Shown: positions 34 to 54,018 of the stretch, piece by piece
Layout of the letters: the number at the start of each line of letters is the position of its first letter
Numbering within the stretch: position 1 is the first letter of the stretch
Origin: an archaeon
Lineage (GTDB): Archaea; Nanobdellota; Nanobdellia; Woesearchaeales; UBA9642
Direction: 5' to 3'
Length of the DNA: 64,000 nt
Assembly (NCBI GenBank): GCA_020057295.1
Contig: JAGVGF010000002.1
Span: 203,878-267,877 of the forward strand
Made by a program: the position numbers and the translations under genes
Notes under the pieces: model-generated
Database searches by the model: none
What the model was told of the DNA's origin: nothing
What the model saw: the letters and a program-made list of their open reading frames with translations, nothing else

Positions 34-3000
34 CTAACCGAATATGTGTGTGATCCAGTAAGCGAATTGATTCCACCAATTACCTATAGTTGACCATATA
101 CCTGTAGGTGAAGATTCCAATGCAACATTACCTGTAATTAGGTTTCCACTATTACTTGTATTTCCATTATTATTTTGATTTGTTGCTACAGTATTTTGTT
201 CATTATTATTTTGATTTGTTGTTGGTACTATTGGTGTGGTCGTATTTTGTTTTGGAACTGTTGCTTGTCCTGGTGTACATGATTTTGTTCTTGTCAATGT
301 TGTATTGCTATTGTCTGTGTAACATATTTGTGAACTTACGCCTTCTGAATTACATGTTGACCATGTTTCACATTGCAATGGTATTCCTCCTGATGAGCCT
401 CCACTACTACCTCCTCCACTCGAAGATGTGACAACTGGTGCAGCAGCTTCTGAATATGTTACAAATTGTGTAAAATGTTTTGTCCAAATAATTAAATCGT
501 TTCCAACATCTATTTTACAATCGCTTTCAATAGGCAGTAAGTCATTAGCAACTTGAGTATCATTCAAACAAACATTAAGTATTTTTGTAAATACTCCTGC
601 TCTCGAATAACCCGTAAGTTTTCCTGCCTGACCAGATATTACAAGTCGAGCTGCATTATCAAATGTCAATTTAGTATCACCATAGCCCACTTCAACAACT
701 GATAAAACAGTGTTAGTCATTCCATTATTTACTGTTGGCGTTACGCTTGTTAGAACATTAACTGTTGGAACATTCATTATGCCATTCCAATCCTCAGGAC
801 CAGAAATGGTTGTTCCTGAAGGCAATGTTACACTATAATCAGTTCCTAATGTATCTCTTGAAAGTGTTAAATCATTTGATAAATTAACAGATGTAAAATT
901 TGTTGTTACATTTGTTATATTATTAGTTACTGAATTAGTCGTTGTTAAAAGAGACAAATCTAATGTTACTTGTTTTGTATCTTCTATGGTGTTTGGTACA
1001 TTAATATTCGTTAAAGGCGAACCAACCGGAACAAGTATATCTGTTGAATTTTCAGTTACGTTCATAACTTCAGAATCTGCTAATGTTTGATTTTCTGTTG
1101 GAATGTCTGTCATGTTAGTTGTCAATGCAGAGGTAGTATACCATGGTGCATAACTTACATTGCCAGAAATAACGGCTGTAAAATTAGGATTAGCACTGCC
1201 CCAATAATTATACGTTGCGTTAACAAATGGGTGAGTAGAACTTATACTAATATCATTATTAACAAATCTATTTTCGTGTGCAACTACAACAGTGTTATCT
1301 ATATCTGAATATCCAACTGCTATAGCTTCAGTACAGTTTGAAATCGTATTACCTGTTATAGTAGCACGAGTTCCTGTTCCGTAATAGTCCGTTACTAAAA
1401 TTCCTGCCGATGTCGAACCGTCATTTGTTGTAACGCCCTTGCAATTTGATATAGCATTGTTAGATATTATTGCTGATGCTCCCGCACCTACTTCTATTCC
1501 ATAATCTAAAAAATCACCTGATCCTTTTCCGACATAAGTATTGCCAGTAATCAAAGCGTTACCAATCGCTGGTCCACTATACGCTCCACGAACATGAACT
1601 CCTATACGTTCAATGTTGCTGAATGTGTTGTTGCTGACTGTTATATTGCCAAACACTACGATTCCGCGGCCAGAGTACGTGCCTGCTTTAATGTTCTTTA
1701 TAATATTATTGTTAATCGTTCCATCACCATAAGATGCTATTGCCCAATTAATTAATCGTGTTGGTGCATCACCATCTAGTGTTACATTACTTAAATTGAA
1801 ATTCACACCGGTGTTAATCAGGAACCATGCTGCGCTATCAGCATTGTTGCCTGCAGTATCGGTTGATGGCTTTATGATTGTCGTTAGTTTATTAACTCCG
1901 ACGATAGATACATTTTTGCTAATGACTATTTGTCCAGTTTCAGTATACGTTCCTGGTCCTACTTTAATCGTGTCGCCGCTCTGAGCAACTCTATCAATCG
2001 GATATCGTTTTATTGCAGTGTAAATACCAGCAATATTAACAATATCTCCTGTTGAACCACAGCCGATGCAATCCCATGTACGCATTTCATTTGCTGGAGT
2101 CCAAACAGTTACAGATTTATCGAATGTGTTTGCAGTAAGAATAGCGTTCCAATCCAATGAACTATAACCTACATTTCCTTTGTAATTTCCCCAAGCAATA
2201 ACATGTCTACGATCTGCTGTTGTAAATTCATTATTAGTAATTGTTGCTGCTCCAACAGGATACACATCCCATAGATCTGCTTGTGGACCAACAAATTCAA
2301 TTCCATCCATAACGTTCTCAAACTTATTACCTATAATTACACGATTAGCAACATCTCCACTCCAACCTGCACCGCTGCTAAAACGGATGCCAGAACCATA
2401 TAAGCCTGCTCCGCCACCATCTAGTAAGTTTCCTTCAATTCTATAAGATTGTAAATGAGAACTGTCTGTTCCCGAATCATACTTTGGATCGTACATATAG
2501 ATTGAAGAAACTCCATCCATTGCATTTATTACAGAATTTTTTATTACAACATTGTTCCCAATCACTTCAACTGTTTTAGTGTTCTCTCCACCGTTCCATC
2601 CCAAAATTGTGAAACCAGAAATTACTACATTATCAGCTTGAACAAATATTGTGTCCTCATGCCCAGAGTTTAACAATTGTCTTTTTGGACTGATTGTTGC
2701 AAGGACATTATCATAATTTGTTATTACATTTCCATTATTATCAACACCTTGTATAGTGACTGATTTATCTACAAAGATATTGAAATCACTAGAACCTGCT
2801 CCGCCATCAACTTGATTACGGGAATTCGCTTCATCCTGGTTATATGTTCCAGGTGTGACATCAATTATATCGCCACTAGTGGCTGCATCAATCGCAGCCT
2901 GAATAGTATAAAAAGATTGCTCTCCTGAATCAAGAATGTTATTTACATTCGTATCAATGAAAACTGGACCTGAAAAATTCGTAGCGTTAGAAGTATAAAT

Positions 3001-3786
3001 AGATATGTTGTTAGAATCTAATGTTACTGCTGTTTGTGCTAATGCTCTTCCGTTTAATGTTGCTCCAGTTAGCATTGCAATATTTGTAGCATCTAAAATA
3101 TTTCCACTTAATACTGATGTTGTTCCAAGTGTTGTTGTGCTAGCGACTTGCCAGAAGATATTTTTTGACTGGCAACTTCCATTTAATATAACTTGCTTTG
3201 AAGAAGCAATATTTAGAGTATTTGCTATTTGAAATATAAACACACCATTCGAGTCTCCTTGACAATCAAGAACAACATTGTTATTTATCAATACCGAAGT
3301 ACTTGGACCCCATTTGTAAATTCCTGGTGTTAAAGTCATTCCGCTAATGTCTCCTGCTCCAAGTTCGATATAATCTGCGGATCCTGTGCCATTAACTCTT
3401 CCAGCTGCATCATTGTAAGCAGTTGTCATATCATTTGTTGCAGTATTAATTTTAGCTGGGGTTGGAACAGCATAGTTATATGCATATATTTTTCCATTCA
3501 CTAAAGTTGATGTAGAAAATTGATTAGAACTATCTAGAGTTAACGCGAAATTTCCTGTTATTGCTGTAGAAGTTACTGCAGGGCCGACACCAATATCTCC
3601 AACAATAGATGTTGTACCAGTAGAAGATATTCCGGAACCAGATAATATAACAAAGTCTGCAGTTGATCCGAGATTTACAATCGCGGGACTTGATGCATTA
3701 ACAAAGTATACCATAAATAAGAAAATTATGAGAATAAATACTATTGAATATACAACGATTTTTGATAATATCTTTTTCTGTTTCAT
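34..3786 (-). CDS. Large secreted surface protein: DUF3494 ice-binding-like domain + right-handed beta-helix repeats + TKHFT domain + Cys module + Trp-rich C-terminal tail
   Basis: Signal peptide; VNLGSTADFVILSGSGIS...LTPGIYKW...FIFQI...NIFWQV...GATLNGRALAQTAVTLD is the DUF3494 pattern; TIQAAIDAA..GD.I.V.PG.Y and I..N.I repeats typical of pectin-lyase-like beta-helix. Confidence 0.85.
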   Translation of the reverse strand: MKQKKILSKIVVYSIVFILIIFLFMVYFVNASSPAIVNLGSTADFVILSGSGISSTGTTSIVGDIGVGPAVTSTAITGNFALTLDSSNQFSTSTLVNGKIYAYNYAVPTPAKINTATNDMTTAYNDAAGRVNGTGSADYIELGAGDISGMTLTPGIYKWGPSTSVLINNNVVLDCQGDSNGVFIFQIANTLNIASSKQVILNGSCQSKNIFWQVASTTTLGTTSVLSGNILDATNIAMLTGATLNGRALAQTAVTLDSNNISIYTSNATNFSGPVFIDTNVNNILDSGEQSFYTIQAAIDAATSGDIIDVTPGTYNQDEANSRNQVDGGAGSSDFNIFVDKSVTIQGVDNNGNVITNYDNVLATISPKRQLLNSGHEDTIFVQADNVVISGFTILGWNGGENTKTVEVIGNNVVIKNSVINAMDGVSSIYMYDPKYDSGTDSSHLQSYRIEGNLLDGGGAGLYGSGIRFSSGAGWSGDVANRVIIGNKFENVMDGIEFVGPQADLWDVYPVGAATITNNEFTTADRRHVIAWGNYKGNVGYSSLDWNAILTANTFDKSVTVWTPANEMRTWDCIGCGSTGDIVNIAGIYTAIKRYPIDRVAQSGDTIKVGPGTYTETGQIVISKNVSIVGVNKLTTIIKPSTDTAGNNADSAAWFLINTGVNFNLSNVTLDGDAPTRLINWAIASYGDGTINNNIIKNIKAGTYSGRGIVVFGNITVSNNTFSNIERIGVHVRGAYSGPAIGNALITGNTYVGKGSGDFLDYGIEVGAGASAIISNNAISNCKGVTTNDGSTSAGILVTDYYGTGTRATITGNTISNCTEAIAVGYSDIDNTVVVAHENRFVNNDISISSTHPFVNATYNYWGSANPNFTAVISGNVSYAPWYTTSALTTNMTDIPTENQTLADSEVMNVTENSTDILVPVGSPLTNINVPNTIEDTKQVTLDLSLLTTTNSVTNNITNVTTNFTSVNLSNDLTLSRDTLGTDYSVTLPSGTTISGPEDWNGIMNVPTVNVLTSVTPTVNNGMTNTVLSVVEVGYGDTKLTFDNAARLVISGQAGKLTGYSRAGVFTKILNVCLNDTQVANDLLPIESDCKIDVGNDLIIWTKHFTQFVTYSEAAAPVVTSSSGGGSSGGSSGGIPLQCETWSTCNSEGVSSQICYTDNSNTTLTRTKSCTPGQATVPKQNTTTPIVPTTNQNNNEQNTVATNQNNNGNTSNSGNLITGNVALESSPTGIWSTIGNWWNQFAYWITHIFG

Positions 3787-3865
3787 TTTTAATCCGCCTC
3801 TCCCCTTGTAAACATATTAAATAATATGTTCTTAAACAATATTTTTTTATTTTTTTATACAAAAT

Positions 3866-4351
3866 TTATCTAGCCTTGACTTCTCCTGGAGATGCTGAAA
3901 TAGTATCTTCTGTATTCTCTACATCTCCTTCGGAAAATCTGTAGTGTCTTGTAATTTTAATTCTTGCAGTATCTTCGATCACATCTCCTGTTTTGTCAGG
4001 CAGTAATCGCATATTATGAATATCAATTCCTTGAATTTCTATCTCTACTTTTCTTATACTTGAATGGTTTGGTGTGAGTACAATGGTTTTGTGATCAGGT
4101 CCCCATTTTTTCTCGAATGTTCCAGATGTATAATTAAATTTAGATAAAGGAATATTTGGAAGGGTTAAGCAATTCGCTTTCAAAAAAACAATATACTCGC
4201 CATAAGTCATTATAGGAATTATGCCTTTGCCCTCTTTCTTGCTTTGATTTTCAAAACGTATAGTGTCTTTTCTTTGTATATAGTGCAAACTATTCTTTTG
4301 ATTTATGTTACTTTTAATTTCGTCTAATTTATCTTCTTTTGATTTTTCCAT
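3866..4351 (-). CDS. Hypothetical protein (probable start MEKSKEDK, 161 aa)
   Basis: ORF track 3866..4480 overlaps the upstream gene; ATG at 4351 preceded by GGAG avoids the overlap. Confidence 0.6.
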   Translation of the reverse strand: MEKSKEDKLDEIKSNINQKNSLHYIQRKDTIRFENQSKKEGKGIIPIMTYGEYIVFLKANCLTLPNIPLSKFNYTSGTFEKKWGPDHKTIVLTPNHSSIRKVEIEIQGIDIHNMRLLPDKTGDVIEDTARIKITRHYRFSEGDVENTEDTISASPGEVKAR

Positions 4352-4389
4352 TGTAATAATGCTCCATTTTTTAAAATGATATTTTTTTC

Positions 4390-4719
4390 TTAAAGTGGCC
4401 CAGCAATTGTTGGTAATATTAAACTGACAATAATTGCAAAAATCCATATAACTACAGCTATAACAAAAGATTTTATCCAACCAATCTTATATAAACTACC
4501 TAGAGCGATAAGCCAAGCTATTCCACCAATTAATGCAGCAACCCAACCTATTCCTATAAAATAAGAAGTGAGTGAAAATATTATTGCACCGACAAGTGCA
4601 GTTAATATAGCTGTACCAAATCCTTCTTTTTCTCCAAATAATTTTGCAGCTATATAAATAATAATTGATGATATGATTAAACTTATCAAAAATCCTATTA
4701 ATGCTTCTAATACTATCAT
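4390..4719 (-). CDS. Small multi-TM membrane protein
   Basis: 109 aa, about four hydrophobic segments, GAGG SD upstream. Confidence 0.7.
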   Translation of the reverse strand: MIVLEALIGFLISLIISSIIIYIAAKLFGEKEGFGTAILTALVGAIIFSLTSYFIGIGWVAALIGGIAWLIALGSLYKIGWIKSFVIAVVIWIFAIIVSLILPTIAGPL

Positions 4720-4805
4720 AATAAACCTCTATTTCTTGACCGTGTCATTACACAATTTTGTGATAATGATTCCTAATATAGAACCTAAATATTTTTTGTT
4801 AACAT

Positions 4806-4925
4806 TTACGTTTTCATTATTTTTTTTCCTGCAGGTCTGTTTTTTACCATTCCTTTTCCACCTGCGCTCTTTGCAGCTCTTTTCTTTGCTGCTGTCATTC
4901 TTCCGCCTCTGCTTGATTTTGCCAT
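4806..4925 (-). CDS. 39-aa basic microprotein MAKSSRGGRMTAAKKRAAKSAGGKGMVKNRPAGKKIMKT
   Basis: Translated by hand; GGAGG SD upstream, starts 1 nt after the stop of the previous gene; below ORF-track cutoff. Confidence 0.6.
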   Translation of the reverse strand: MAKSSRGGRMTAAKKRAAKSAGGKGMVKNRPAGKKIMKT

Positions 4926-4926
4926 T

Positions 4927-5157
4927 TTATTTCCTCCGTTTGTTATAGTCTATGTTTTTAATTAGCCAATAAATTCCTACAATTATTAGAATAATTACTA
5001 AGATGCTGAAAATCCAGCCGAGCGACATAAATCCATAACTATATCCGCTCATCATTCCATAACTTCTAAAACCGAATCCGAAAAATTCTAAGAGGATTAG
5101 AATTGCTATAACAACAACTATTCCTATAATAAAATTTTTATTATCTTTCTTTGTCAT
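4927..5157 (-). CDS. Small two-TM membrane protein with YGMM..YG.GF linker
   Basis: 76 aa, two hydrophobic helices around a Gly/Met/Tyr-rich loop. Confidence 0.65.
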   Translation of the reverse strand: MTKKDNKNFIIGIVVVIAILILLEFFGFGFRSYGMMSGYSYGFMSLGWIFSILVIILIIVGIYWLIKNIDYNKRRK

Positions 5158-5203
5158 TTTTATTTTCCCAAATTTAATTTACTAATATAAATCTGATAAT
5201 TAT

Positions 5204-5392
5204 TTAAGCTTGTTTGATCACGTGAGCTATTACTGAAATTGCAAATAATATTACAAAAATTATAGCTAACCATTTAGCGATTGTAAATGATGTTCCTGAG
5301 ATGAATCCAAATCCTAATATTCCAGCAATTACTGCTACTACCAAAAATATTATCGCTAAAAACAACCAGCCTCCTAAACCTTTTTTATTCAT
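5204..5392 (-). CDS. DUF1328 (UPF0391/YtjA-like) small membrane protein
   Basis: LAIIFLVVAVIAGILGFGFISG....IAKWL..IFVILF matches the DUF1328 pattern. Confidence 0.8.
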   Translation of the reverse strand: MNKKGLGGWLFLAIIFLVVAVIAGILGFGFISGTSFTIAKWLAIIFVILFAISVIAHVIKQA

Positions 5393-5507
5393 TTTTGTCT
5401 CCGTTATAATTATGTATTCTTCACAGTAAGTTTATATCACATTTGAATCAAATGTTCTAATTAAAAAAATAAAAAAATGTATTACGCAACTTTACGTTGA
5501 TAAGCTT

Positions 5508-7613
5508 TTAACCAAATATGTGTGTGATCCAGTAGATGAACTGGCTCCACCATCGACCTATAGTTGACCATATTCCTGTAGGTGATGATTCTAATGCAAC
5601 GTTACCTGTAATTTGGTTTCCATCATTTGGTGTATTTCCATTATTATCTTGAACTACTGGTGTAGTCTGATTTACTGCCCAAGTGTTTTGTCCATTGTTA
5701 CCTGTGTCTGTTACTGGTGTAGTTACGTTTTGTTTTGGAACTGTTGTTTGTCCTGGTGTACATGATTTTGTTCTTGTCAATGTTGTGTTGCTATTGTCCG
5801 TGTAACATATTTGTGAACTTACGCCTTCTGAATTACATGTTGACCATGTTTCACATTGTAATGGTGTTCCTCCTGATGAACCTCCACCGCCTCCTCCTGT
5901 GCTTGCTGGTGGTTGTACAACAGCAGCATCAGTTGTAAAGCTTGTAGTATTACTTACAGAATATCCTGCTTTATCATAACATGTAATATTTACTGTATAA
6001 GCTGTACTAGAACTTAGACCGCTTAAACTAGCTGTGTATACTCCATTACTTAAAATTAAATTGCCGCTTCCCGCGCCTGTATAAGTACAATTATTTATTC
6101 CAGAATACATATCACTAGCATTAATAGTAATGGTTGCACCACTACTAGTTACACTACCGCTGGATACACTGTTTGTTACTGGTGCAGTTTGATCTACATA
6201 AACTGTAAACGAAGTCGTGTTTATGTTTGTAGCATTATCTCTTACAGTTAAGTTTACATAGTACGTACCATTTGTAGTAACAGTATATGTTTCTATTGCT
6301 GAAAGATTAATTGTGGTTGCTGTCCAATTCTGTAACAATCCTCCTGTAGAATTGTATACTGATAATGTCCAATTTATTAAGTTAGTATCATTAGCAGTAA
6401 AGTTAATACTTAATGTTGTGTCATTAGTACCGTAACCATTACTTACATTGTTGATACTATTAATTAATGATGTTGGCATAATTGTATCTATAAAAACCAT
6501 TCTATTACTAGAGTTAGTTACAACAGATCCGTCATCACAACTCATATACCAACTATTGTTACCTTCGCTTAATTGTGCATTAGCAGTAATAGCAGTATTA
6601 GTATTATTAACAACTGAACTATTTGTTCCTACAGAAACATTGTTTGCATACAAAGTACAAGATGCTGTTGAAGCACCAACATACTTGAAAGTAAATGCTG
6701 GCATATTACTAGTATTCCATGTATTAGTTGTAGGATTTACTAAAGTTACTACTGGTGAACTTGTGCCAGTTGGCGATGTAACTATATTGGATTGCAATGT
6801 AACTTGATCAGTTGATGCAAATAATTTACCAGTTATATTAGCACCAGTAAGTGCGTTTACTTCTGTCCATGCGAATACATTTCCATAAAAAACAGTGTTA
6901 GTTCCAATAACTGTTTTACCTGCTGTTCTCCAATAAACATTTTTTGCTTGTGCACCGTTTGCTAAAATTATATTACCTCCTGGGGCTCCAGTAATAAGAG
7001 TGCCTGTACCGACTATATTAAAAATCCACACGGAATTAGGATTACCTTCTGCATCTAGAGTTAAATTTCCTTGTTGTATTATTACATTGGAAGCAGTCTT
7101 ATAGACTCCACGAGTAAGTGTTAAATTGCCTAATTCTGTTGGGCAAGATATTGTTGGTGCGTCAGGATTTGGGTCTGCAGCTAAATATGTGAATGCAATT
7201 CCTAAATCAGTTTTTGCTTGAGTTATCATTGCACCGCTAGTTGTCCATGTTGCTCCAACAGGTAATGTTGAATAATGTAATGGATAAGGAAATGGTGCCG
7301 GATTAGAATCATCGGATGCGTATGATGTTCCGCCTGTAAGTTCAGTAAAATCTCCTGCAGGTCCAGTTGATGTGAATCCTGTAATGAACGTACGAGCTTG
7401 ATCTTCTACACCAATATCTCCACCTGTAATATTACTGCCTACTGTTGTTGTGACTGTTTGACTAGCTAAAATTACGAATCTGCCTGCTTCTCCTAAATCT
7501 GGAGCAGTTGGATTTTCTCCTACTGCATTAACGTTAATTGCACTAATTAATAATATAGTTGCAAAAATTGCAATATACATAAAGATGTTTGATGATGTGT
7601 TTTTTTGTTTCAT
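5508..7613 (-). CDS. Secreted DUF3494 ice-binding-like protein with Ig/FN3-like repeats, Cys module and Trp-rich tail
   Basis: PDLGEAGRFVILA...LTLTRGVYK...LTLDAEGNPNSVWIF...GAQAKNVYW; Thr/Asn-rich beta-sandwich repeats (D.T.P, Y.V.I.C.D.AG); tail nearly identical to the 1250-aa gene. Confidence 0.85.
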   Translation of the reverse strand: MKQKNTSSNIFMYIAIFATILLISAINVNAVGENPTAPDLGEAGRFVILASQTVTTTVGSNITGGDIGVEDQARTFITGFTSTGPAGDFTELTGGTSYASDDSNPAPFPYPLHYSTLPVGATWTTSGAMITQAKTDLGIAFTYLAADPNPDAPTISCPTELGNLTLTRGVYKTASNVIIQQGNLTLDAEGNPNSVWIFNIVGTGTLITGAPGGNIILANGAQAKNVYWRTAGKTVIGTNTVFYGNVFAWTEVNALTGANITGKLFASTDQVTLQSNIVTSPTGTSSPVVTLVNPTTNTWNTSNMPAFTFKYVGASTASCTLYANNVSVGTNSSVVNNTNTAITANAQLSEGNNSWYMSCDDGSVVTNSSNRMVFIDTIMPTSLINSINNVSNGYGTNDTTLSINFTANDTNLINWTLSVYNSTGGLLQNWTATTINLSAIETYTVTTNGTYYVNLTVRDNATNINTTSFTVYVDQTAPVTNSVSSGSVTSSGATITINASDMYSGINNCTYTGAGSGNLILSNGVYTASLSGLSSSTAYTVNITCYDKAGYSVSNTTSFTTDAAVVQPPASTGGGGGGSSGGTPLQCETWSTCNSEGVSSQICYTDNSNTTLTRTKSCTPGQTTVPKQNVTTPVTDTGNNGQNTWAVNQTTPVVQDNNGNTPNDGNQITGNVALESSPTGIWSTIGRWWSQFIYWITHIFG

Positions 7614-7723
7614 TTTTGTTTCTCCCTTATCGTAAATTTTTTGTTTTTTTTTATTCTATAATTTTTTCAAATCTGATTTTGATTTTCTTTTATTTATTGT
7701 ATATTCTTATCGTAAAATTTTTA

Positions 7724-8944
7724 TTACTTTCCTCCAAAGAGTCTTGAGACCCATGCAAGGAAATTTTCCCACCACGAATTTTTACTTCCACTTTGTGTTG
7801 TTCCGCCAGCTTGTGTATTTTCATTATTGTTTGTATTATTTTGACTTGCTGGTGTACTTTGATTTACAGTCCAAGTGTTTTGTCCATTATTACTCGTATT
7901 TGTTACTGGTGTAGTTACGTTTTGTTTTGGAGCTGTTGTTTGATTTAATGTACATGCTTGTGTCTTTGTTAATACTGTATCTCCAGTAGTATACTTGCAT
8001 GTTCTTGTACTGATATTTTTTGAATTACATGCTGACCATTCTGTACATTCAAGAGTATTTGAGCTTCCGCTAGTACTTCCTCCTGAACTTGAACTTCCGC
8101 TTCCACTACTTGTTCCTCCTGAACTTCCACTGCCTGTTCCAGGAGTAGGAGTTGGTGTAGGTGTTGGATTTGGTGTTGATGATCCTGATGGTATTGTGAC
8201 AGCATTTGCATCTAATGTTACTGCTGTTTGTGCTAGTGCTCTTCCATTTAATGTTGCTCCGGTATTTAGTACGATTGCTGTTTGACCTAGAATATTTCCT
8301 TTAAAGTCTGATGTTGTTCCAAGTGTTGCTTGACCTGCGACTTGCCAGAATATGTTCTTTGCTTGTGCACCGCCACTTAGAATAACTTTTTTACCATTTG
8401 CTATATCAAGTGTTTGCGCTATTTGGAATATCCATACATCTGTTGAACTTCCTGATAATGTAACATCTGTTGGTATTGTAACTCCAGTTCCCCATTTGTA
8501 AAGTCCAGGTGTTAATGTCATTCCGCCTATATTTCCAGCGCCTAATTCAGTATAATCTGGTAATGTTCTTCCAGCTGCATCAGTGTATGCTATTTCCATA
8601 TCGCCTATAGCTACACCCATAGCAGTTGGTGTTGGTGGGGTATAATCTGCTGCATATATTTTTCCTGTTACTAAAGATGATGTTGCGAAAGTATTTGATG
8701 CATCAGAAATTAATCCGAATCCTGTTATGAAAGTTGCAGCTGCTGGACTTAATCCAATATCCCCAACTATTGAAGTGGTTCCAGTAGTTGAAACCCCTGA
8801 TTTTGATAGAATAACGAAATTGCCTGCTGTTCCAAGATTTACAGCTGATTGTGCTGCGTTGACATTAAATGCGCTCATTAATAATATAGTCGCAAAGATT
8901 GCAATATACATGAAAATATTTGATGTTGTGTTTTTTTGTTTCAT
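7724..8944 (-). CDS. Secreted DUF3494 ice-binding-like protein with PT/GS linker, Cys module and Trp-rich tail
   Basis: VNLGTAGNFVILSKSGVSTTG...LTPGLYKW...VWIFQI...GAQAKNIFWQV...GRALAQTAVTLD is canonical DUF3494. Confidence 0.9.
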   Translation of the reverse strand: MKQKNTTSNIFMYIAIFATILLMSAFNVNAAQSAVNLGTAGNFVILSKSGVSTTGTTSIVGDIGLSPAAATFITGFGLISDASNTFATSSLVTGKIYAADYTPPTPTAMGVAIGDMEIAYTDAAGRTLPDYTELGAGNIGGMTLTPGLYKWGTGVTIPTDVTLSGSSTDVWIFQIAQTLDIANGKKVILSGGAQAKNIFWQVAGQATLGTTSDFKGNILGQTAIVLNTGATLNGRALAQTAVTLDANAVTIPSGSSTPNPTPTPTPTPGTGSGSSGGTSSGSGSSSSGGSTSGSSNTLECTEWSACNSKNISTRTCKYTTGDTVLTKTQACTLNQTTAPKQNVTTPVTNTSNNGQNTWTVNQSTPASQNNTNNNENTQAGGTTQSGSKNSWWENFLAWVSRLFGGK

Positions 8945-27341: not shown

Positions 27342-28409
27342 GTGAGTATGGGATTGTATGATGATTTACTAAAGGGTGGAGAATCCCTATTTAAGAACGA
27401 GTACGCATTAGATTATACTTTTCTTCCAAAAACTGTTCCTTATAGAGAGGCACAACAGAAATATCTAGCTTCATGTATAAAACCTTTATTGATGGATCAT
27501 AATGGACGTAATGTTCTGGTCCATGGTCCACCAGGTGTTGGTAAGACTGCTGCATTAAAACACTTACTTCGAGAATTAGATGAAAGCGATGAATTTGCAG
27601 AAAAACTTTTCCCAATATATGTTAATTGCTGGCATAAAAATACCACATATAAAGTAGTCCTAGAATTATGTGATCAAGTTGGTTACGCATTCGTACAAAA
27701 TAAGAATACTGAAGATTTATTCAAAATAGTTACGCAAATTATTAATAAAAAAGGAGCAATATTTGTATTCGATGAGATAGATAAGGCTGAAGATACAGAC
27801 TTCCTATATATACTATCAGAAATGGTTTTTAAAAAAACCATATTTTTAGTAACGAATTATAAATCTTGGCTTCTAGAATTAGATGATAGGATTAGAAGTA
27901 GATTAATGATGGAACAGACAGAATTTCCACAATATAATGCTGAAGAAGTTGCTGGAATATTAAAAGAGAGAATCCCTTATGCATTTAACACTAATTGTGT
28001 TGATGATGATGCAATAATAGCAATTGCTAACAAGGCAGCTGATTTAAAAGACTTAAGGATAGGAATGTTTTTACTTAGAGAATCTGCAGTAGTTGCAGAA
28101 TCTAAAGGCAGTAAACGTGTTAAAGCAGAGCATGTACAGTCAGCTATCTTGAAAATAGATCAGTTCACAATTAAGAGTACTGATGATTTGGATGATGATG
28201 CTAAAAATATATTAAAAATTGTTAGAGAATATAGTGGTAAAAAAATTGGTGACTTATATAAATTATATGAGCAGGCCGGCGGTAAAACTTCTTATAAAAC
28301 CTTTCAGCGTAAAATCACCAAGTTAGAAGAAGGTAAGTTTATTTCTTTAGAAAGAACTCATGCTGGTGGTAATACTACTATTGTGAATAAAAAATTAACG
28401 GAATATTAA
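27342..28409 (+). CDS. cdc6: Orc1/Cdc6 family replication initiator
   Basis: PYRE, GPPGVGKT, YVNC, FDEID, RSRL, Y..EE...IL..R, C-terminal wHTH. Confidence 0.88.
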   Translation: MSMGLYDDLLKGGESLFKNEYALDYTFLPKTVPYREAQQKYLASCIKPLLMDHNGRNVLVHGPPGVGKTAALKHLLRELDESDEFAEKLFPIYVNCWHKNTTYKVVLELCDQVGYAFVQNKNTEDLFKIVTQIINKKGAIFVFDEIDKAEDTDFLYILSEMVFKKTIFLVTNYKSWLLELDDRIRSRLMMEQTEFPQYNAEEVAGILKERIPYAFNTNCVDDDAIIAIANKAADLKDLRIGMFLLRESAVVAESKGSKRVKAEHVQSAILKIDQFTIKSTDDLDDDAKNILKIVREYSGKKIGDLYKLYEQAGGKTSYKTFQRKITKLEEGKFISLERTHAGGNTTIVNKKLTEY

Positions 28410-42030: not shown

Positions 42031-42399
42031 TCACTTTCTTTTTTTTAATTGTTTTAGATTATTATCAAGATCTATGCCGTACTTTCCGTCACCATATTTG
42101 TATATTAATCCATCCTGATTCATTAAAGATTGTAGATTTAATTGATACTTTCCTTTACCCGTAATATTTATTGCTTCAATGTCAAAAATTATTATCTCCT
42201 TATTATCATCATCTTCTAGTTCGTAGAAATAATTTATTTCATCATATGATTCTTCAACCTTCTTTTTAGCCTTACTGTTTTTATTATTTTTAACAAAATA
42301 GAATAATTTACCTCCGCATATACATCCGTTAAGTATCTCTTCAGAACCTTTTTCGTATACTTCTCCACATTTTACACATTTATGCTGCATCAAAATCAC
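42031..42399 (-). CDS. oapC: OapC/ArvC Zn-ribbon protein (DUF2072)
   Basis: HKCVKCG...IL.GC.CG...F.F; GKY.I.L repeats; third gene of the operon. Confidence 0.85.
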   Translation of the reverse strand: MILMQHKCVKCGEVYEKGSEEILNGCICGGKLFYFVKNNKNSKAKKKVEESYDEINYFYELEDDDNKEIIIFDIEAINITGKGKYQLNLQSLMNQDGLIYKYGDGKYGIDLDNNLKQLKKRK

Positions 42400-42812
42400 T
42401 TCTTCTTAATATTATTTTTACCTGTACCTTTTGAATATTTATTTATATAATCTTTATGAAAATATATTTCTATACTTTCAGGATTTTGTTTTAGTTCGCT
42501 TATTATTTTTGCGGGACCAATAATTGTTAATCCTGTACTTTCACCGATTAATATTTTTGCAATGTTATGTTTAATTCTAGTTATTAGATTATGTTCATGA
42601 TTGTCGTGTACTATTCCTATTTCTAAACCATTAAATTCATCGTTAATAGAATTCATTGTCTCTCTTATTAAATTTGCTTCATCAATACTGTTCAATCGTC
42701 CATCAATTAGTATAATATTTTCTTCTTTTATAAGTTTTAATATCTCTTCCATTCTGCCCTTAGAATTCATGCTAGAAAGTTTCTTATTCGACAAATATTT
42801 GAATTTTAACAT
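42396..42812 (-). CDS. oapB: OapB/ArvB protein (DUF2073)
   Basis: EA.LI..TM..I...F.G.EI, GLTIIGPA. Confidence 0.85.
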   Translation of the reverse strand: MLKFKYLSNKKLSSMNSKGRMEEILKLIKEENIILIDGRLNSIDEANLIRETMNSINDEFNGLEIGIVHDNHEHNLITRIKHNIAKILIGESTGLTIIGPAKIISELKQNPESIEIYFHKDYINKYSKGTGKNNIKKK

Positions 42813-47551: not shown

Positions 47552-48175
47552 ATGAAGCGCGCAATACTTACAGGATTTGAGCCATTTGGACCATACAAAT
47601 ATAATCCTGTTCAAGATACTGCAAGAGAATATAATAGAAAAATATTAGGAGATATTGAGATCATAGGATTAGTTTTACCATGCACATATTATGGAGCTTT
47701 TAAATTATTATCTGAAAAAATAGACGAGCTTTCTCCAGATATAATTATTGGTAGCGGACTCGCTTCTAGAATTCAACGTATAAGACTTGAAGCATTTGGA
47801 AGAAATGTTATGAATGGAAAATATCCCGACAACGAAGGAAGAAAGGCAGATAATGAACCTATTATTAAAGATGGAAACTTGCTATATCAAACAACTTCAA
47901 ATAGTATTCTCTTAGCAAGTGCTCTTTATGATTCAGGAATTTCTGCAGAAGTATCAATCGATGCTGAGGGATTTATTTGTAATTCTTTAATTTATCTAAC
48001 TGCAAAAAGAATTTCTGATGAAAATATTCCTATTAGGTTTGCTTTTTTCCATACTCCCTGGACAGAAGATTATTTAGATAGAGTAAACTTAGAATCTGGT
48101 AAAGTGACAATTAAAAAAAACAATTTAAGGAGAACAATAGAGCTTTTAGTAAGAAATGTTGAGCGAAACATATAA
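47552..48175 (+). CDS. pcp: Pyroglutamyl-peptidase I
   Basis: LTGFEPFG, RLE, AEGFICN, FFH.P. Confidence 0.88.
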   Translation: MKRAILTGFEPFGPYKYNPVQDTAREYNRKILGDIEIIGLVLPCTYYGAFKLLSEKIDELSPDIIIGSGLASRIQRIRLEAFGRNVMNGKYPDNEGRKADNEPIIKDGNLLYQTTSNSILLASALYDSGISAEVSIDAEGFICNSLIYLTAKRISDENIPIRFAFFHTPWTEDYLDRVNLESGKVTIKKNNLRRTIELLVRNVERNI

Positions 48176-52031: not shown

Positions 52032-52784
52032 ATGGAATCTAGAGAGCAAAGAATTGCCACATTAACAGCAACATTAAAAGCTTCAGGAATAGCAAAAAGT
52101 GATAGTCAGGCTAGGATGATGGCTGAAGAAATGATTGGTGTAGAAGAACATGTACAGAAGAGTTATGAAGTAGAACATGCAAAAGCACATGAATATTTAC
52201 AGACTGCTAAAAATTTGGGTACAAGACCTGCACAACAGACACAAAAACCTGTACAGGAAGTTAGATTCTCGCAACAATCAAATTCTCAAGATACTCGAAC
52301 TCCAAAAATACAGGAATTACCTCAGCGAGAAAAAATTGAATCAGTATATACTGATGTAAACATTAATTCTACTAAACCTTTAGCACAAGCAGTTAATGAA
52401 CATGATACACACAACCCTGCCATTGAAGCTATAAAGAATCAGATGATGCATGAGCATATAATTCCATTAGAGGATAGAGAACAACCACTACAAAAAGAAC
52501 CATCTAAAGATGTACCTTCTGAAGTAGATTATCATGAATCGACTGATTCATCTGTTGAAAATTCAACAATTCAACCAGTCGTTGATACACCGGTTGAGCA
52601 AAATGAAACAGTTGAACAACCAACATTAGATACTCAAAAACTTGTAGAGATGATGGAAGAGGATGGAAAACTAGAGGAACATACTAGAGAAATTAAAGAA
52701 AAACCTAAGGATGTCAAGCCAAAAGAGGCTTATGCAGAAAACAGTATTGATCTAGGTAATGTGTTTAATTTTAATAAGAAATAG
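52032..52784 (+). CDS. Hypothetical acidic, largely disordered protein
   Basis: E/Q/P-rich 250-aa ORF with GTGAGG SD. Confidence 0.7.
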   Translation: MESREQRIATLTATLKASGIAKSDSQARMMAEEMIGVEEHVQKSYEVEHAKAHEYLQTAKNLGTRPAQQTQKPVQEVRFSQQSNSQDTRTPKIQELPQREKIESVYTDVNINSTKPLAQAVNEHDTHNPAIEAIKNQMMHEHIIPLEDREQPLQKEPSKDVPSEVDYHESTDSSVENSTIQPVVDTPVEQNETVEQPTLDTQKLVEMMEEDGKLEEHTREIKEKPKDVKPKEAYAENSIDLGNVFNFNKK

Positions 52785-52926
52785 TTTATTTAATTTTTTT
52801 AATAATATTGTAATTGATTCTGAATGGGAAAATAAGCTTGAAATCACTGGGTAGTGAATAAAATCGAAACCTTTATAAATAATATTCTACTACACAGTGA
52901 TAACTTAATGTTTGTTGGGGGTTAAA

Positions 52927-53964
52927 ATGAGCGCAACAAAGTCAATATTATTTGGATTGTCATTACTTACTGCTGCTGAATTAACAATTGTTGAGAGAGC
53001 ATTAGCAGATTTTAATTCATTAAAAAACGCTGCAAAGAGTATTCCTAATGCAACTCAATTAAATGTTCCAGAAATTCCAAGTAACGTTGTTATTATGGAT
53101 CACACTAGAAATCCATCAGGATTTAAAGGATACACTGGAATCGCAGCTGCTCCTGCAGTAGACGATTCAATTGCTAAAATAGCAGATGATCTTGGTGTAA
53201 TGCAATGGTACGTGACACCACGCGGTACAATATTAAGATATAAGAGTTTGCCTAATGGTTCTATAAAATTACACACTTCAACAAACGATTCATTAGCATA
53301 TTTACAGATGGTTGGAAAAGGAATATTTGATTCAACAATACTTAAAGAGAATCATGCACCTACAGTTAGAAGTCAATTTAATGAATTTAGTATGCCTATA
53401 AATGGCGGTAGAAAATTCATCGGATTAGCATCAACTTTATTTGATGATGTAGATCCTGGAGACAAACAAAGATTGTCTTACGCAGGATGGTTAACAGATC
53501 CTTCAAAAGCATTATTTCAAATAGTTAATGATACATTATATGTAACACCACTAGATACTGGAAAAACTAATTTAGTGTTAAAAGTAGCTGATCCACAAGC
53601 TGATTCAGTAAAGATGACTATACCAATAACTATTGGTGCACCAGTAACATCTGTAGATGATAAAGTAACTAACGGTGTTCCTAATAATTTCAAGGTACAG
53701 AATTATCCAAATCCATTTAATCCATCAACTAATATAGCATACACTTTAGAAACTGATGGTAAAGTAAGATTCGAGATATTTGATGCATTAGGAAGATTAG
53801 TAGAAACATTAATCGATGAAAGACAAAAGGCAGGAACACATACTATAAATTATAACGCATCAAAGCACAATCTATCTTCAGGAATATATTATGGTAGATG
53901 TACGGTTAAGGGATCAGACGGATCCTATAAATTGTCAACAGTAAAACTATCGTTGACAAAATAA
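52927..53964 (+). CDS. Secreted protein with T9SS type A C-terminal sorting domain
   Basis: Signal peptide; VTSV...P..F..QNYPNPFNPST.I.Y.L....V...IFD.LGR.V..L.......G...I.......LSSGIY......K..L.K. Confidence 0.85.
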   Translation: MSATKSILFGLSLLTAAELTIVERALADFNSLKNAAKSIPNATQLNVPEIPSNVVIMDHTRNPSGFKGYTGIAAAPAVDDSIAKIADDLGVMQWYVTPRGTILRYKSLPNGSIKLHTSTNDSLAYLQMVGKGIFDSTILKENHAPTVRSQFNEFSMPINGGRKFIGLASTLFDDVDPGDKQRLSYAGWLTDPSKALFQIVNDTLYVTPLDTGKTNLVLKVADPQADSVKMTIPITIGAPVTSVDDKVTNGVPNNFKVQNYPNPFNPSTNIAYTLETDGKVRFEIFDALGRLVETLIDERQKAGTHTINYNASKHNLSSGIYYGRCTVKGSDGSYKLSTVKLSLTK

Positions 53965-54018
53965 TAAAAATTATAAAGTTGGAGAACTTATTATAGAATG
54001 ATAACGGGGGTTTTAAAC

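Follow-up and report, generated by a model that had tools for sequence, protein, structure and literature searches.

A type IX secretion C-terminal domain beside an S-layer-like gene of a woesearchaeote and its possible use as a surface module

What does a sorting domain of the bacterial type IX secretion system (T9SS) do on a protein of an archaeon? The question is raised by one gene (52927-53964, +) in a stretch of 64,000 nucleotides (nt), hereafter the window, from a woesearchaeote (positions 203,878 to 267,877 of contig JAGVGF010000002.1, assembly GCA_020057295.1). Its product ends in a T9SS type A C-terminal domain (CTD), and the first-pass annotation of the locus had proposed an acquired domain kept for a new purpose, for example docking onto the T9SS of a bacterial host. 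The reading towards which we incline, with modest confidence, is that a CTD derived from bacteria of the Fibrobacteres-Chlorobi-Bacteroidetes (FCB) group has been reused here, without a T9SS, as a folded module of the cell surface, possibly tied to the surface layer (S-layer). Selection on the domain, its place in an S-layer-like operon and its internal position in proteins of relatives together argue for a function apart from T9SS targeting. Throughout, G000 denotes the source genome, codes such as G001 or G034 other genomes of the order, L codes loci and P codes matches of protein searches.

The open reading frame (ORF) is intact and encodes 345 amino acids (aa) from an ATG, with a Shine-Dalgarno-like GGGGGT at 52917-52922, 5 nt upstream of it; an alternative TTG start at 52912 is less likely. 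The C-terminal part scored 33.6 bits against Por_Secre_tail in Pfam (PF18962, cut-off 27, residues 260-328) and 31.8 bits against TIGR04183 in NCBIfam (cut-off 23), whereas the generic FlgD_ig (PF13860) reached 20.6 bits, under its own cut-off of 27. The identity as a T9SS type A CTD is thus upheld, and so are the other traits that the first-pass annotation had read from the letters, i.e., the signature strings (QNYPNPFNPST..., LSSGIY and a terminal K-L-S-L-T-K right before the stop codon), a cadherin- or immunoglobulin (Ig)-like segment before the CTD, an archaeal promoter (TTTATAAA after CGAAACC, 48 nt 5' of the ATG) and a host-like base composition. The gene has a GC content of 0.330 overall and 0.159 at third codon positions (GC3), the latter equal to that of its neighbors (0.341 and 0.156 in the S-layer-like gene, 0.316 and 0.179 in the beta-CASP gene). 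The CTD lies at the extreme C-terminus, with 14 residues after the end of the hidden Markov model (HMM) match, so that the domain reaches the stop codon. Residues P261, P263, G289, G319 and Y321 are invariant in a 21-row CTD alignment. Motifs B (PNPF), D (G.Y) and E (K..L.K), as type A motifs are named in a passage of PMC10202324, are all present, the protein ending in KLSLTK.

An AlphaFold2 model gave residues 258-340 as a seven-strand Ig-like beta-sandwich, at a predicted local distance difference test (pLDDT) of 76-95. The CTD of PorU (6za2_B) matched it with Z 9.2 and a root mean square deviation of 2.4 over 87 aligned residues at 24% identity, that of mirolase (8qb1_A) with Z 8.9 and that of NucA in a T9SS complex (8glk_D) with Z 8.4 over 75/75 residues. 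Generic MG and Ig domains match the model equally well (Z up to 9.5), as do archaeal S-layer domains (7ptp_A, Z 9.2; SlaB 8qox_B, Z 8.6). Because T9SS CTDs tie with these generic folds, the fold alone is not diagnostic and it is the sequence that identifies the domain; Foldseek with the whole-protein model returned only generic two-Ig-domain matches. The Ig-like domain of FlgD shares the fold class and the weak match mentioned above, and an archaeal CTD profile also matches the FlgD structure 3osv (E = 1.7e-5). It differs in falling below its cut-off, and in the alignment it is CTDs that have the N-terminal QNYPNPFNP strand and a K..L.K ending.

In front of the CTD, the N-terminus inspected by eye has K5, a hydrophobic run of 12 residues and then ALA followed by D, a putative signal peptide. 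By sequence inspection, the protein has no transmembrane-length hydrophobic run, membrane anchor or lipobox. The Ig-like segment had no direct Pfam match at E <= 0.1, and it aligns to tandem repeats, up to 19 stretches, in proteins of 490-5710 aa (among 1.84 billion representatives). Those of the repeat proteins that were scanned are Big_9/Cadherin_5 by Pfam (Big_9, 262 bits; Cadherin_5, 163 bits), for example P0122, in which Big_9 is matched at 262 bits in 11 stretches. Strands of this domain were modeled at residues 185-240 (pLDDT about 65-72), and the region of residues 28-140 had pLDDT < 50.

The genome around the gene is of archaeal, DPANN (Diapherotrites, Parvarchaeota, Aenigmarchaeota, Nanoarchaeota, Nanohaloarchaeota) type, as had been supposed. 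Among the genes of the window are those for ribosomal protein S24e, Rpb7, Orc1/Cdc6, an ATP-dependent DNA ligase and the archaeal CCA enzyme, together with RtcB and archease, LonB, diphthamide synthesis and OapB/OapC. G000 (1.20 Mb in 6 contigs) is 100% complete with 0.46% contamination, and its RadA falls in a cluster, at a level of at least 90%, with NCBI proteins named Candidatus Woesearchaeota archaeon. Neither SprA (TIGR04189) nor PorV (NF033710) nor GldM (TIGR03517) had any match in G000 at E <= 0.1, and the PorU profile (NF033707) matched solely through the CTDs, with no PorU-like protein, in line with the earlier statement that archaea have no T9SS. As positive controls, PorV and SprA scored over cut-off in a Flavobacterium genome and in an Ignavibacteriaceae metagenome-assembled genome, GldM being without such a control; the two genomes were reached via nine bacterial loci matched by the CTD of the window, the standard control genomes holding no T9SS organism. 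The same kind of locus search with the CTD alignment as query yielded no conserved stretch. According to a passage of PMC11285876, T9SS genes are absent from archaea, and a table in PMC6461988 lists one Thermoprofundales C25 peptidase with this annotation. Among the open full texts searched, we found no paper treating this domain in DPANN archaea.

The position of the gene is its second peculiarity. The usual order in the genus is a conserved 250-aa gene, an S-layer-like gene and a beta-CASP RNase gene. The S-layer-like gene has homologues in 40/41 relatives; its 671-aa product matches NPCBM_assoc in Pfam (33.7 bits) and has a C-terminal hydrophobic segment at residues 640-671. We call it only S-layer-like because its score against NF033506 (PACE-CTERM-PROT putative S-layer protein), 68.8 bits, is under the cut-off of 110. 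The 250-aa gene stands directly 5' of it in relatives, with homologues in the same position in G001, G003, G004, G007, G008, G009 and G011. In G005, G006, G007, G008, G009 and G011, a conserved promoter block (consensus CGAAAC(C/A)TTTATAAA, about 9 nt, then ACTAC(A/G)(T/C)AGT(A/G)A(T/C)AAC) is found 5' of the S-layer-like gene. In G000, G001 and G003 it lies instead 5' of an inserted CTD-family gene, as does a similar block in G034. The 16-nt downstream part of the block has only two occurrences genome-wide at up to 1 mismatch.

The same arrangement recurs in three other genomes, with variations. On a 1666-bp contig of G001, the end of the 250-aa gene is followed by the block and the CTD gene; after a further 65 nt, which include 'aaaattataaa' (similar to ATTATAAA), comes ATGATAACGGGGGTA, which reads MITGV. 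At this position G003 carries a homologue of 189 aa with a decayed CTD, without the middle strands. In G034, a closed genome of another family, a 234-aa CTD gene has its stop 5 nt from the ATG of the S-layer-like gene. All four proteins (G000, G001, G003 and G034) have a motif A(D/E)(F/Y)N..L after the signal peptide, and a search of representatives added P0155 as a fifth full-length member of the family. The passenger (residues 1-255) had homologues only in G000 and G001 among the 41 relatives. Judging from this gene order, these genes form a single family that stands first in the S-layer-like transcription unit, and the S-layer-like gene would be either co-transcribed with it or under a small promoter of its own. 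Given its placement at the S-layer promoter, the CTD protein is probably made together with the main surface protein and at levels like it.

The CTD is under purifying selection. Between G000 and G001 it retains 44% aa identity, with a nonsynonymous divergence (dN) of 0.47, against 33% and 0.81 for the passenger, synonymous divergence (dS) being saturated at about 2 in both parts. In two paralogues on contig C3 of G000, the CTDs are 83% identical (dN 0.10, dS 0.54, dN/dS about 0.19) and the passengers 31% (dN 0.83, dS 1.16), which suggests that the CTD part has a more recent common origin, by conversion or swap. Incidentally, these paralogues belong to a four-gene same-strand row (locus L038, 7473-19832, -) in which Pfam-less giants of 1433 and 1287 aa, partly related and cysteine-rich, alternate with the two CarboxypepD_reg...CTD proteins of 599 and 700 aa.

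Relatives also carry internal copies of the domain. Among the copies of the order, 24 are terminal, 7 internal (449-860 residues after the domain) and 3 cut by a contig end. For comparison, an HMM built from the matches of the homology search placed the end of the CTD no more than 18 residues from the C-terminus in 120/120 proteins of that set, none being internal (7/31 versus 0/120, Fisher p = 8.5e-6); these proteins had been picked for their resemblance to a C-terminal query, so the set is not unbiased. With five more proteins (in L011 and L012, two genes in L030, and a 3'-cut one in L080), internal copies amount to 12 proteins in 11 genomes (loci L011, L012, L030, L068, L076, L080, L085, L086, L090, L094 and L097). 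They are secreted and mostly large (490-1154 aa, one shortened by a contig end), and typically open with a signal peptide and CarboxypepD_reg. A complete CTD-like domain comes next, still close to the N-terminus, with 115 to 860 residues and further domains after it; downstream parts are common to subsets of the proteins. In those 12 proteins, because of its position, the CTD cannot serve as a C-terminal signal.

As for its source, the homology search gave 2277 matches, and all but two align to the CTD only, with 28-63% identity over 19-63% of the query. The two exceptions are P0001 (97% identity) and the protein of G001, listed as P0002 (36%). Named CTD matches come from Ignavibacteria, Melioribacteraceae, Bacteroidota, Chlorobi and Zixibacteria, at 35-63% identity in the case of Ignavibacteria, Melioribacteraceae and Bacteroidota. 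The domain appears to derive from FCB-group bacteria (Ignavibacteriota/Bacteroidota-like), and the transfer was probably long ago, since codon usage is fully host-like. In a quick maximum likelihood tree of 19 archaeal and 118 homology-search CTDs, 86/133 branches were unresolved; the archaeal label required 11 changes versus 18 with shuffled labels, and the tree speaks neither for nor against one common archaeal origin.

The gene is not alone in its genome. Five CTD ORFs of G000 are over the TIGR04183 cut-off, on four contigs of 124-268 kb (GC 0.306-0.316), all with a signal-peptide-like N-terminus and the CTD at the extreme C-terminus. Genes for S8e, Rpb6, exosome subunits, proteasome alpha, Rpp14, RadA and TruD surround them, and each adjoins a same-strand gene for a secreted protein (621-1433 aa) within 150 nt. 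At E <= 1e-3, TIGR04183 was matched in 17/41 relatives, G000 included, one of them being the single-contig genome G034 with 4 copies. An even draw across the order gave 40/251 genomes over cut-off, or 33/204 when restricted to those of high quality. T9SS bacteria have tens of CTD copies per genome, compared with only five in G000 and one to three in most relatives. The protein of the window is otherwise similar to bacterial type A CTD proteins of Bacteroidota, Ignavibacteriota and other FCB members in passing the same cut-offs, in the motifs, in the seven-strand sandwich of about 85 residues at the extreme C-terminus, in a putative N-terminal signal peptide and in the Ig-like passenger before the CTD. 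It differs in belonging to an archaeon, in that SprA, PorV, GldM and PorU were not found, in the S-layer-like operon and in the internal use of the domain by relatives.

From these data a model can be drawn in which the protein would leave the cell by Sec, with a cleavable signal peptide. With one membrane and no T9SS, Sec is the expected exit, and the CTD would not be a signal for outer-membrane translocation. Expression from the S-layer promoter, at which the gene is placed, would be high. The CTD would act as a compact, stable beta-sandwich module at the end of the protein, maintained by selection, and either it or the Ig domain, or both, may hold the anchorless protein at the archaeal surface by association with the S-layer or with glycans. 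Alternatively, the protein might be an adhesin that presents the CTD together with the cadherin-like domain. That the CTD protein associates specifically with the S-layer is less likely than not. A link between type A CTDs and S-layer biology has a precedent in TfsA/TfsB of Tannerella forsythia, S-layer glycoproteins that carry the CTD themselves, are exported through it by the T9SS and lose it to that system, as described in a passage of PMC10202324. In the woesearchaeote, unlike in that case, the CTD is on a separate small protein, the S-layer-like protein is membrane-anchored and no T9SS was found.

Several observations weigh against a reused surface module. The CTD seems to be dispensable in G003, because it is shortened there. 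Both spacers in front of the S-layer-like gene (G000 and G001) carry a ATTATAAA-like box, so co-transcription does not follow from the gene order. The placement in the S-layer operon is restricted to 4 genomes, and none of 47 further CTD loci of the order has an S-layer-like ORF next to the CTD gene, which makes this placement a trait of the family and not of archaeal CTD genes generally. The domain itself is patchy, present in 16% of the genomes of the order and mostly in 1-3 copies. The tallies of 17/41 relatives and 40/251 genomes are upper bounds, because one contig of a relative (G012:C9, locus L036, 1-20000) is bacterial, with a TonB-dependent receptor, DUF5074, DUF3332, an M43-PKD-CTD protein, a LuxR response regulator and HlyD, so that its five CTD matches are contamination, and because G013 (14 CTD matches, including PAD_porph+CTD and C25 peptidase+CARDB+CTD) and the 47 order-level loci, with GC from 0.31 to 0.63, are unvetted. 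In addition, 24/31 copies have stayed at the extreme C-terminus with a K..L.K motif there, as would be expected if the end still mattered, and for the N-terminal ~185 residues AlphaFold2 gives no usable model.

Patchiness, together with the decayed copy of G003, the lack of any reader machinery among what was found and the poorly resolved CTD tree, which leaves room for repeated recent imports, is also what would be expected if the CTD were a harmless relic, acquired horizontally from FCB bacteria and slowly disappearing. We consider such a neutral passenger rather improbable. In two independent comparisons the CTD evolves more slowly than the protein part that carries it (the dN values given above), G000 and G001 have both retained it despite saturation at synonymous sites, codon usage has become fully host-like, and the domain is fused to various archaeal passengers and has shifted to internal positions.

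The extreme C-terminal place (in the 24/31 copies of the order and in 5/5 of G000) and the conserved K..L.K ending would fit another explanation, an archaeal reader that processes or attaches the CTD protein in the manner of PorU/PorV or of archaeosortases, which we take to be unlikely. A possible lead is a secreted, Pfam-less 436-aa protein encoded directly after another CTD gene in G000 and G001 (G000:C4, locus L037, 8414-9721, -; 24 nt after the CTD gene). Its signal peptide ends in NAQ, its end (...FAGYIF) is like that of an outer-membrane barrel, G001 retains the gene pair (36% identity), and by language-model features it resembles Bacteroidota DUF5723 (0.95, low recognition 1649), a resemblance to be read as a lead only. 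The protein is present in only 2/41 relatives, its homologues among 5.8 billion proteins being that of G001 and two metagenome proteins, none of them a bacterial sequence homologue; its model has a mean pLDDT of 29. As a PorV-like reader it was rejected, with no Pfam or NCBIfam match and no match of the DUF5723 HMM (PF18990) in G000. The PorU profile found CTDs only, and internal copies speak against a strict C-terminal signal.

Docking on a bacterial host, in which the displayed CTD would be captured by PorV or by the PorU/PorV attachment complex of an FCB bacterium, is unlikely as well. The CTD is canonical, close to those of Ignavibacteria, Melioribacteraceae and Bacteroidota, with PNPF, G.Y and K..L.K kept, and the gene lies behind the strongest-looking surface promoter, as would fit an adhesin. 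Signal peptides ending in A-Q, characteristic of substrates of signal peptidase I in Bacteroidota, are found in 4/5 CTD proteins of G000 and in many small ones elsewhere in the order (loci L070-L107). Separately, the window encodes a pyroglutamyl peptidase at 47552-48175. G000, although an archaeon without peptidoglycan, also has peptidoglycan-hydrolase domains, an Amidase_2 (84.8 bits) in a 1338-aa protein beside an RPA gene (G000:C3, locus L115, 4786-8799, +) and an SLT (63 bits) in a 337-aa protein (G000:C5, locus L116, 1829-2839, -); Peptidase_M23 was not found in this genome. According to a passage of PMC8204110, proteins of this kind hint that bacteria may serve some Woesearchaeota as hosts for an episymbiotic life. 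SLT is found in 140/251 genomes of the order (a tally that includes G212), and its presence is not associated with that of the CTD: 26/40 genomes with CTD versus 114/211 without, odds ratio 1.58, p = 0.23, in a sample of 251 genomes in which kin are non-independent. Besides, the family is tied to the archaeon's own S-layer-like gene, and in the 12 proteins with an internal CTD, mostly large multi-domain surface proteins, there is no free C-terminal tag to be captured. The proposal of an acquired domain kept for a new purpose thus stands as to acquisition and retention, given purifying selection and a T9SS that was not found, while the operon and the internal copies point elsewhere than docking. 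With its Amidase_2 and SLT domains the archaeon may have a bacterial partner, which the CTD itself does not show. The most elaborate version, a woesearchaeote living on FCB bacteria that uses CTD-tipped surface proteins as bait for the host PorV and then opens the wall with Amidase_2 and SLT, seems very unlikely to us; if true, it would be a case of cross-domain cargo mimicry and would give a molecular handle on the bacterial host of a DPANN archaeon.

Finally, that a bacterial gene was joined to archaeal DNA in assembly or binning, as the contamination in G012 shows can happen in a relative, has a negligible probability here: contig chimerism, a concern of the first-pass annotation, is excluded for G000 by the five genes on four contigs with archaeal core genes around each, and the gene itself lies mid-contig (268 kb), flanked on one side by a conserved archaeal gene and on the other by the S-layer-like one, with a gene order that recurs in G001, G003 and G034, the last of them closed, GC3 like its neighbors', 0.46% contamination in the whole genome and the 97%-identical copy in an independent source.

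The features of the locus are collected in Table 1.

Table 1. Coordinates of the CTD gene, its parts and its neighbors in the window
Feature	Position	Strand	Details
Conserved 250-aa gene (M.SREQRIA.L.ATLK ... N.DL...FNFNKK)	52032..52784	+	No Pfam family
Conserved S-layer promoter block	52865..52904	+	CGAAACC + TTTATAAA (52872-52879) + ACTACACAGTGATAAC (52889-52904)
Signal-peptide-like N-terminus, MSATKSILFGLSLLTAAELTIVERALA	52927..53007	+	Residues 1-27, putative, assigned by eye
Family-specific N region opening with ADFNSLKNAAKS	53008..53346	+	Residues 28-140; motif common to G001, G003 and G034 homologues
Big_9/cadherin-like Ig domain, NHAP...FDDVDPGD...LSY	53347..53649	+	Residues ~141-241; matches to repeat proteins
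T9SS type A CTD	53698..53961	+	Residues 258-345; seven-strand beta-sandwich, ends at stop codon
Spacer, 33 nt	53965..53997	+	TATA-like ATTATAAA + GGAG
S-layer-like surface protein, 671 aa	53998..56013	+	Signal peptide, Ig-like/NPCBM_assoc, C-terminal membrane anchor ending LLAKFVF

Some other features of this genome deserve mention. At one end of the window (34-8944, -) there are three tandem genes for secreted Ice_binding proteins (1250, 701 and 406 aa; PF11999, 185-265 bits), the largest of which also has a beta-helix region; the trio suggests a cold habitat. Orc1/Cdc6 (27342-28409, +) and OapC/OapB (42031-42812, -) are 14 kb apart. Elsewhere in G000, a full-length RelA/SpoT of bacterial type (HD_4, RelA_SpoT, TGS, ACT) is encoded beside TruD in archaeal surroundings (G000:C5, locus L039, 18074-19933, -).

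T9SS CTDs are otherwise taken as a marker of bacterial outer-membrane secretion, and a CTD that functions apart from the T9SS, as we propose here for a reused surface module, would bear on how matches to CTD annotations are read. The gene also provides a candidate surface protein, probably highly expressed, for cells whose envelopes and partners are little known, and with it a small, testable entry into the question of the bacterial partners that some Woesearchaeota may have, as raised in a passage of PMC8204110.

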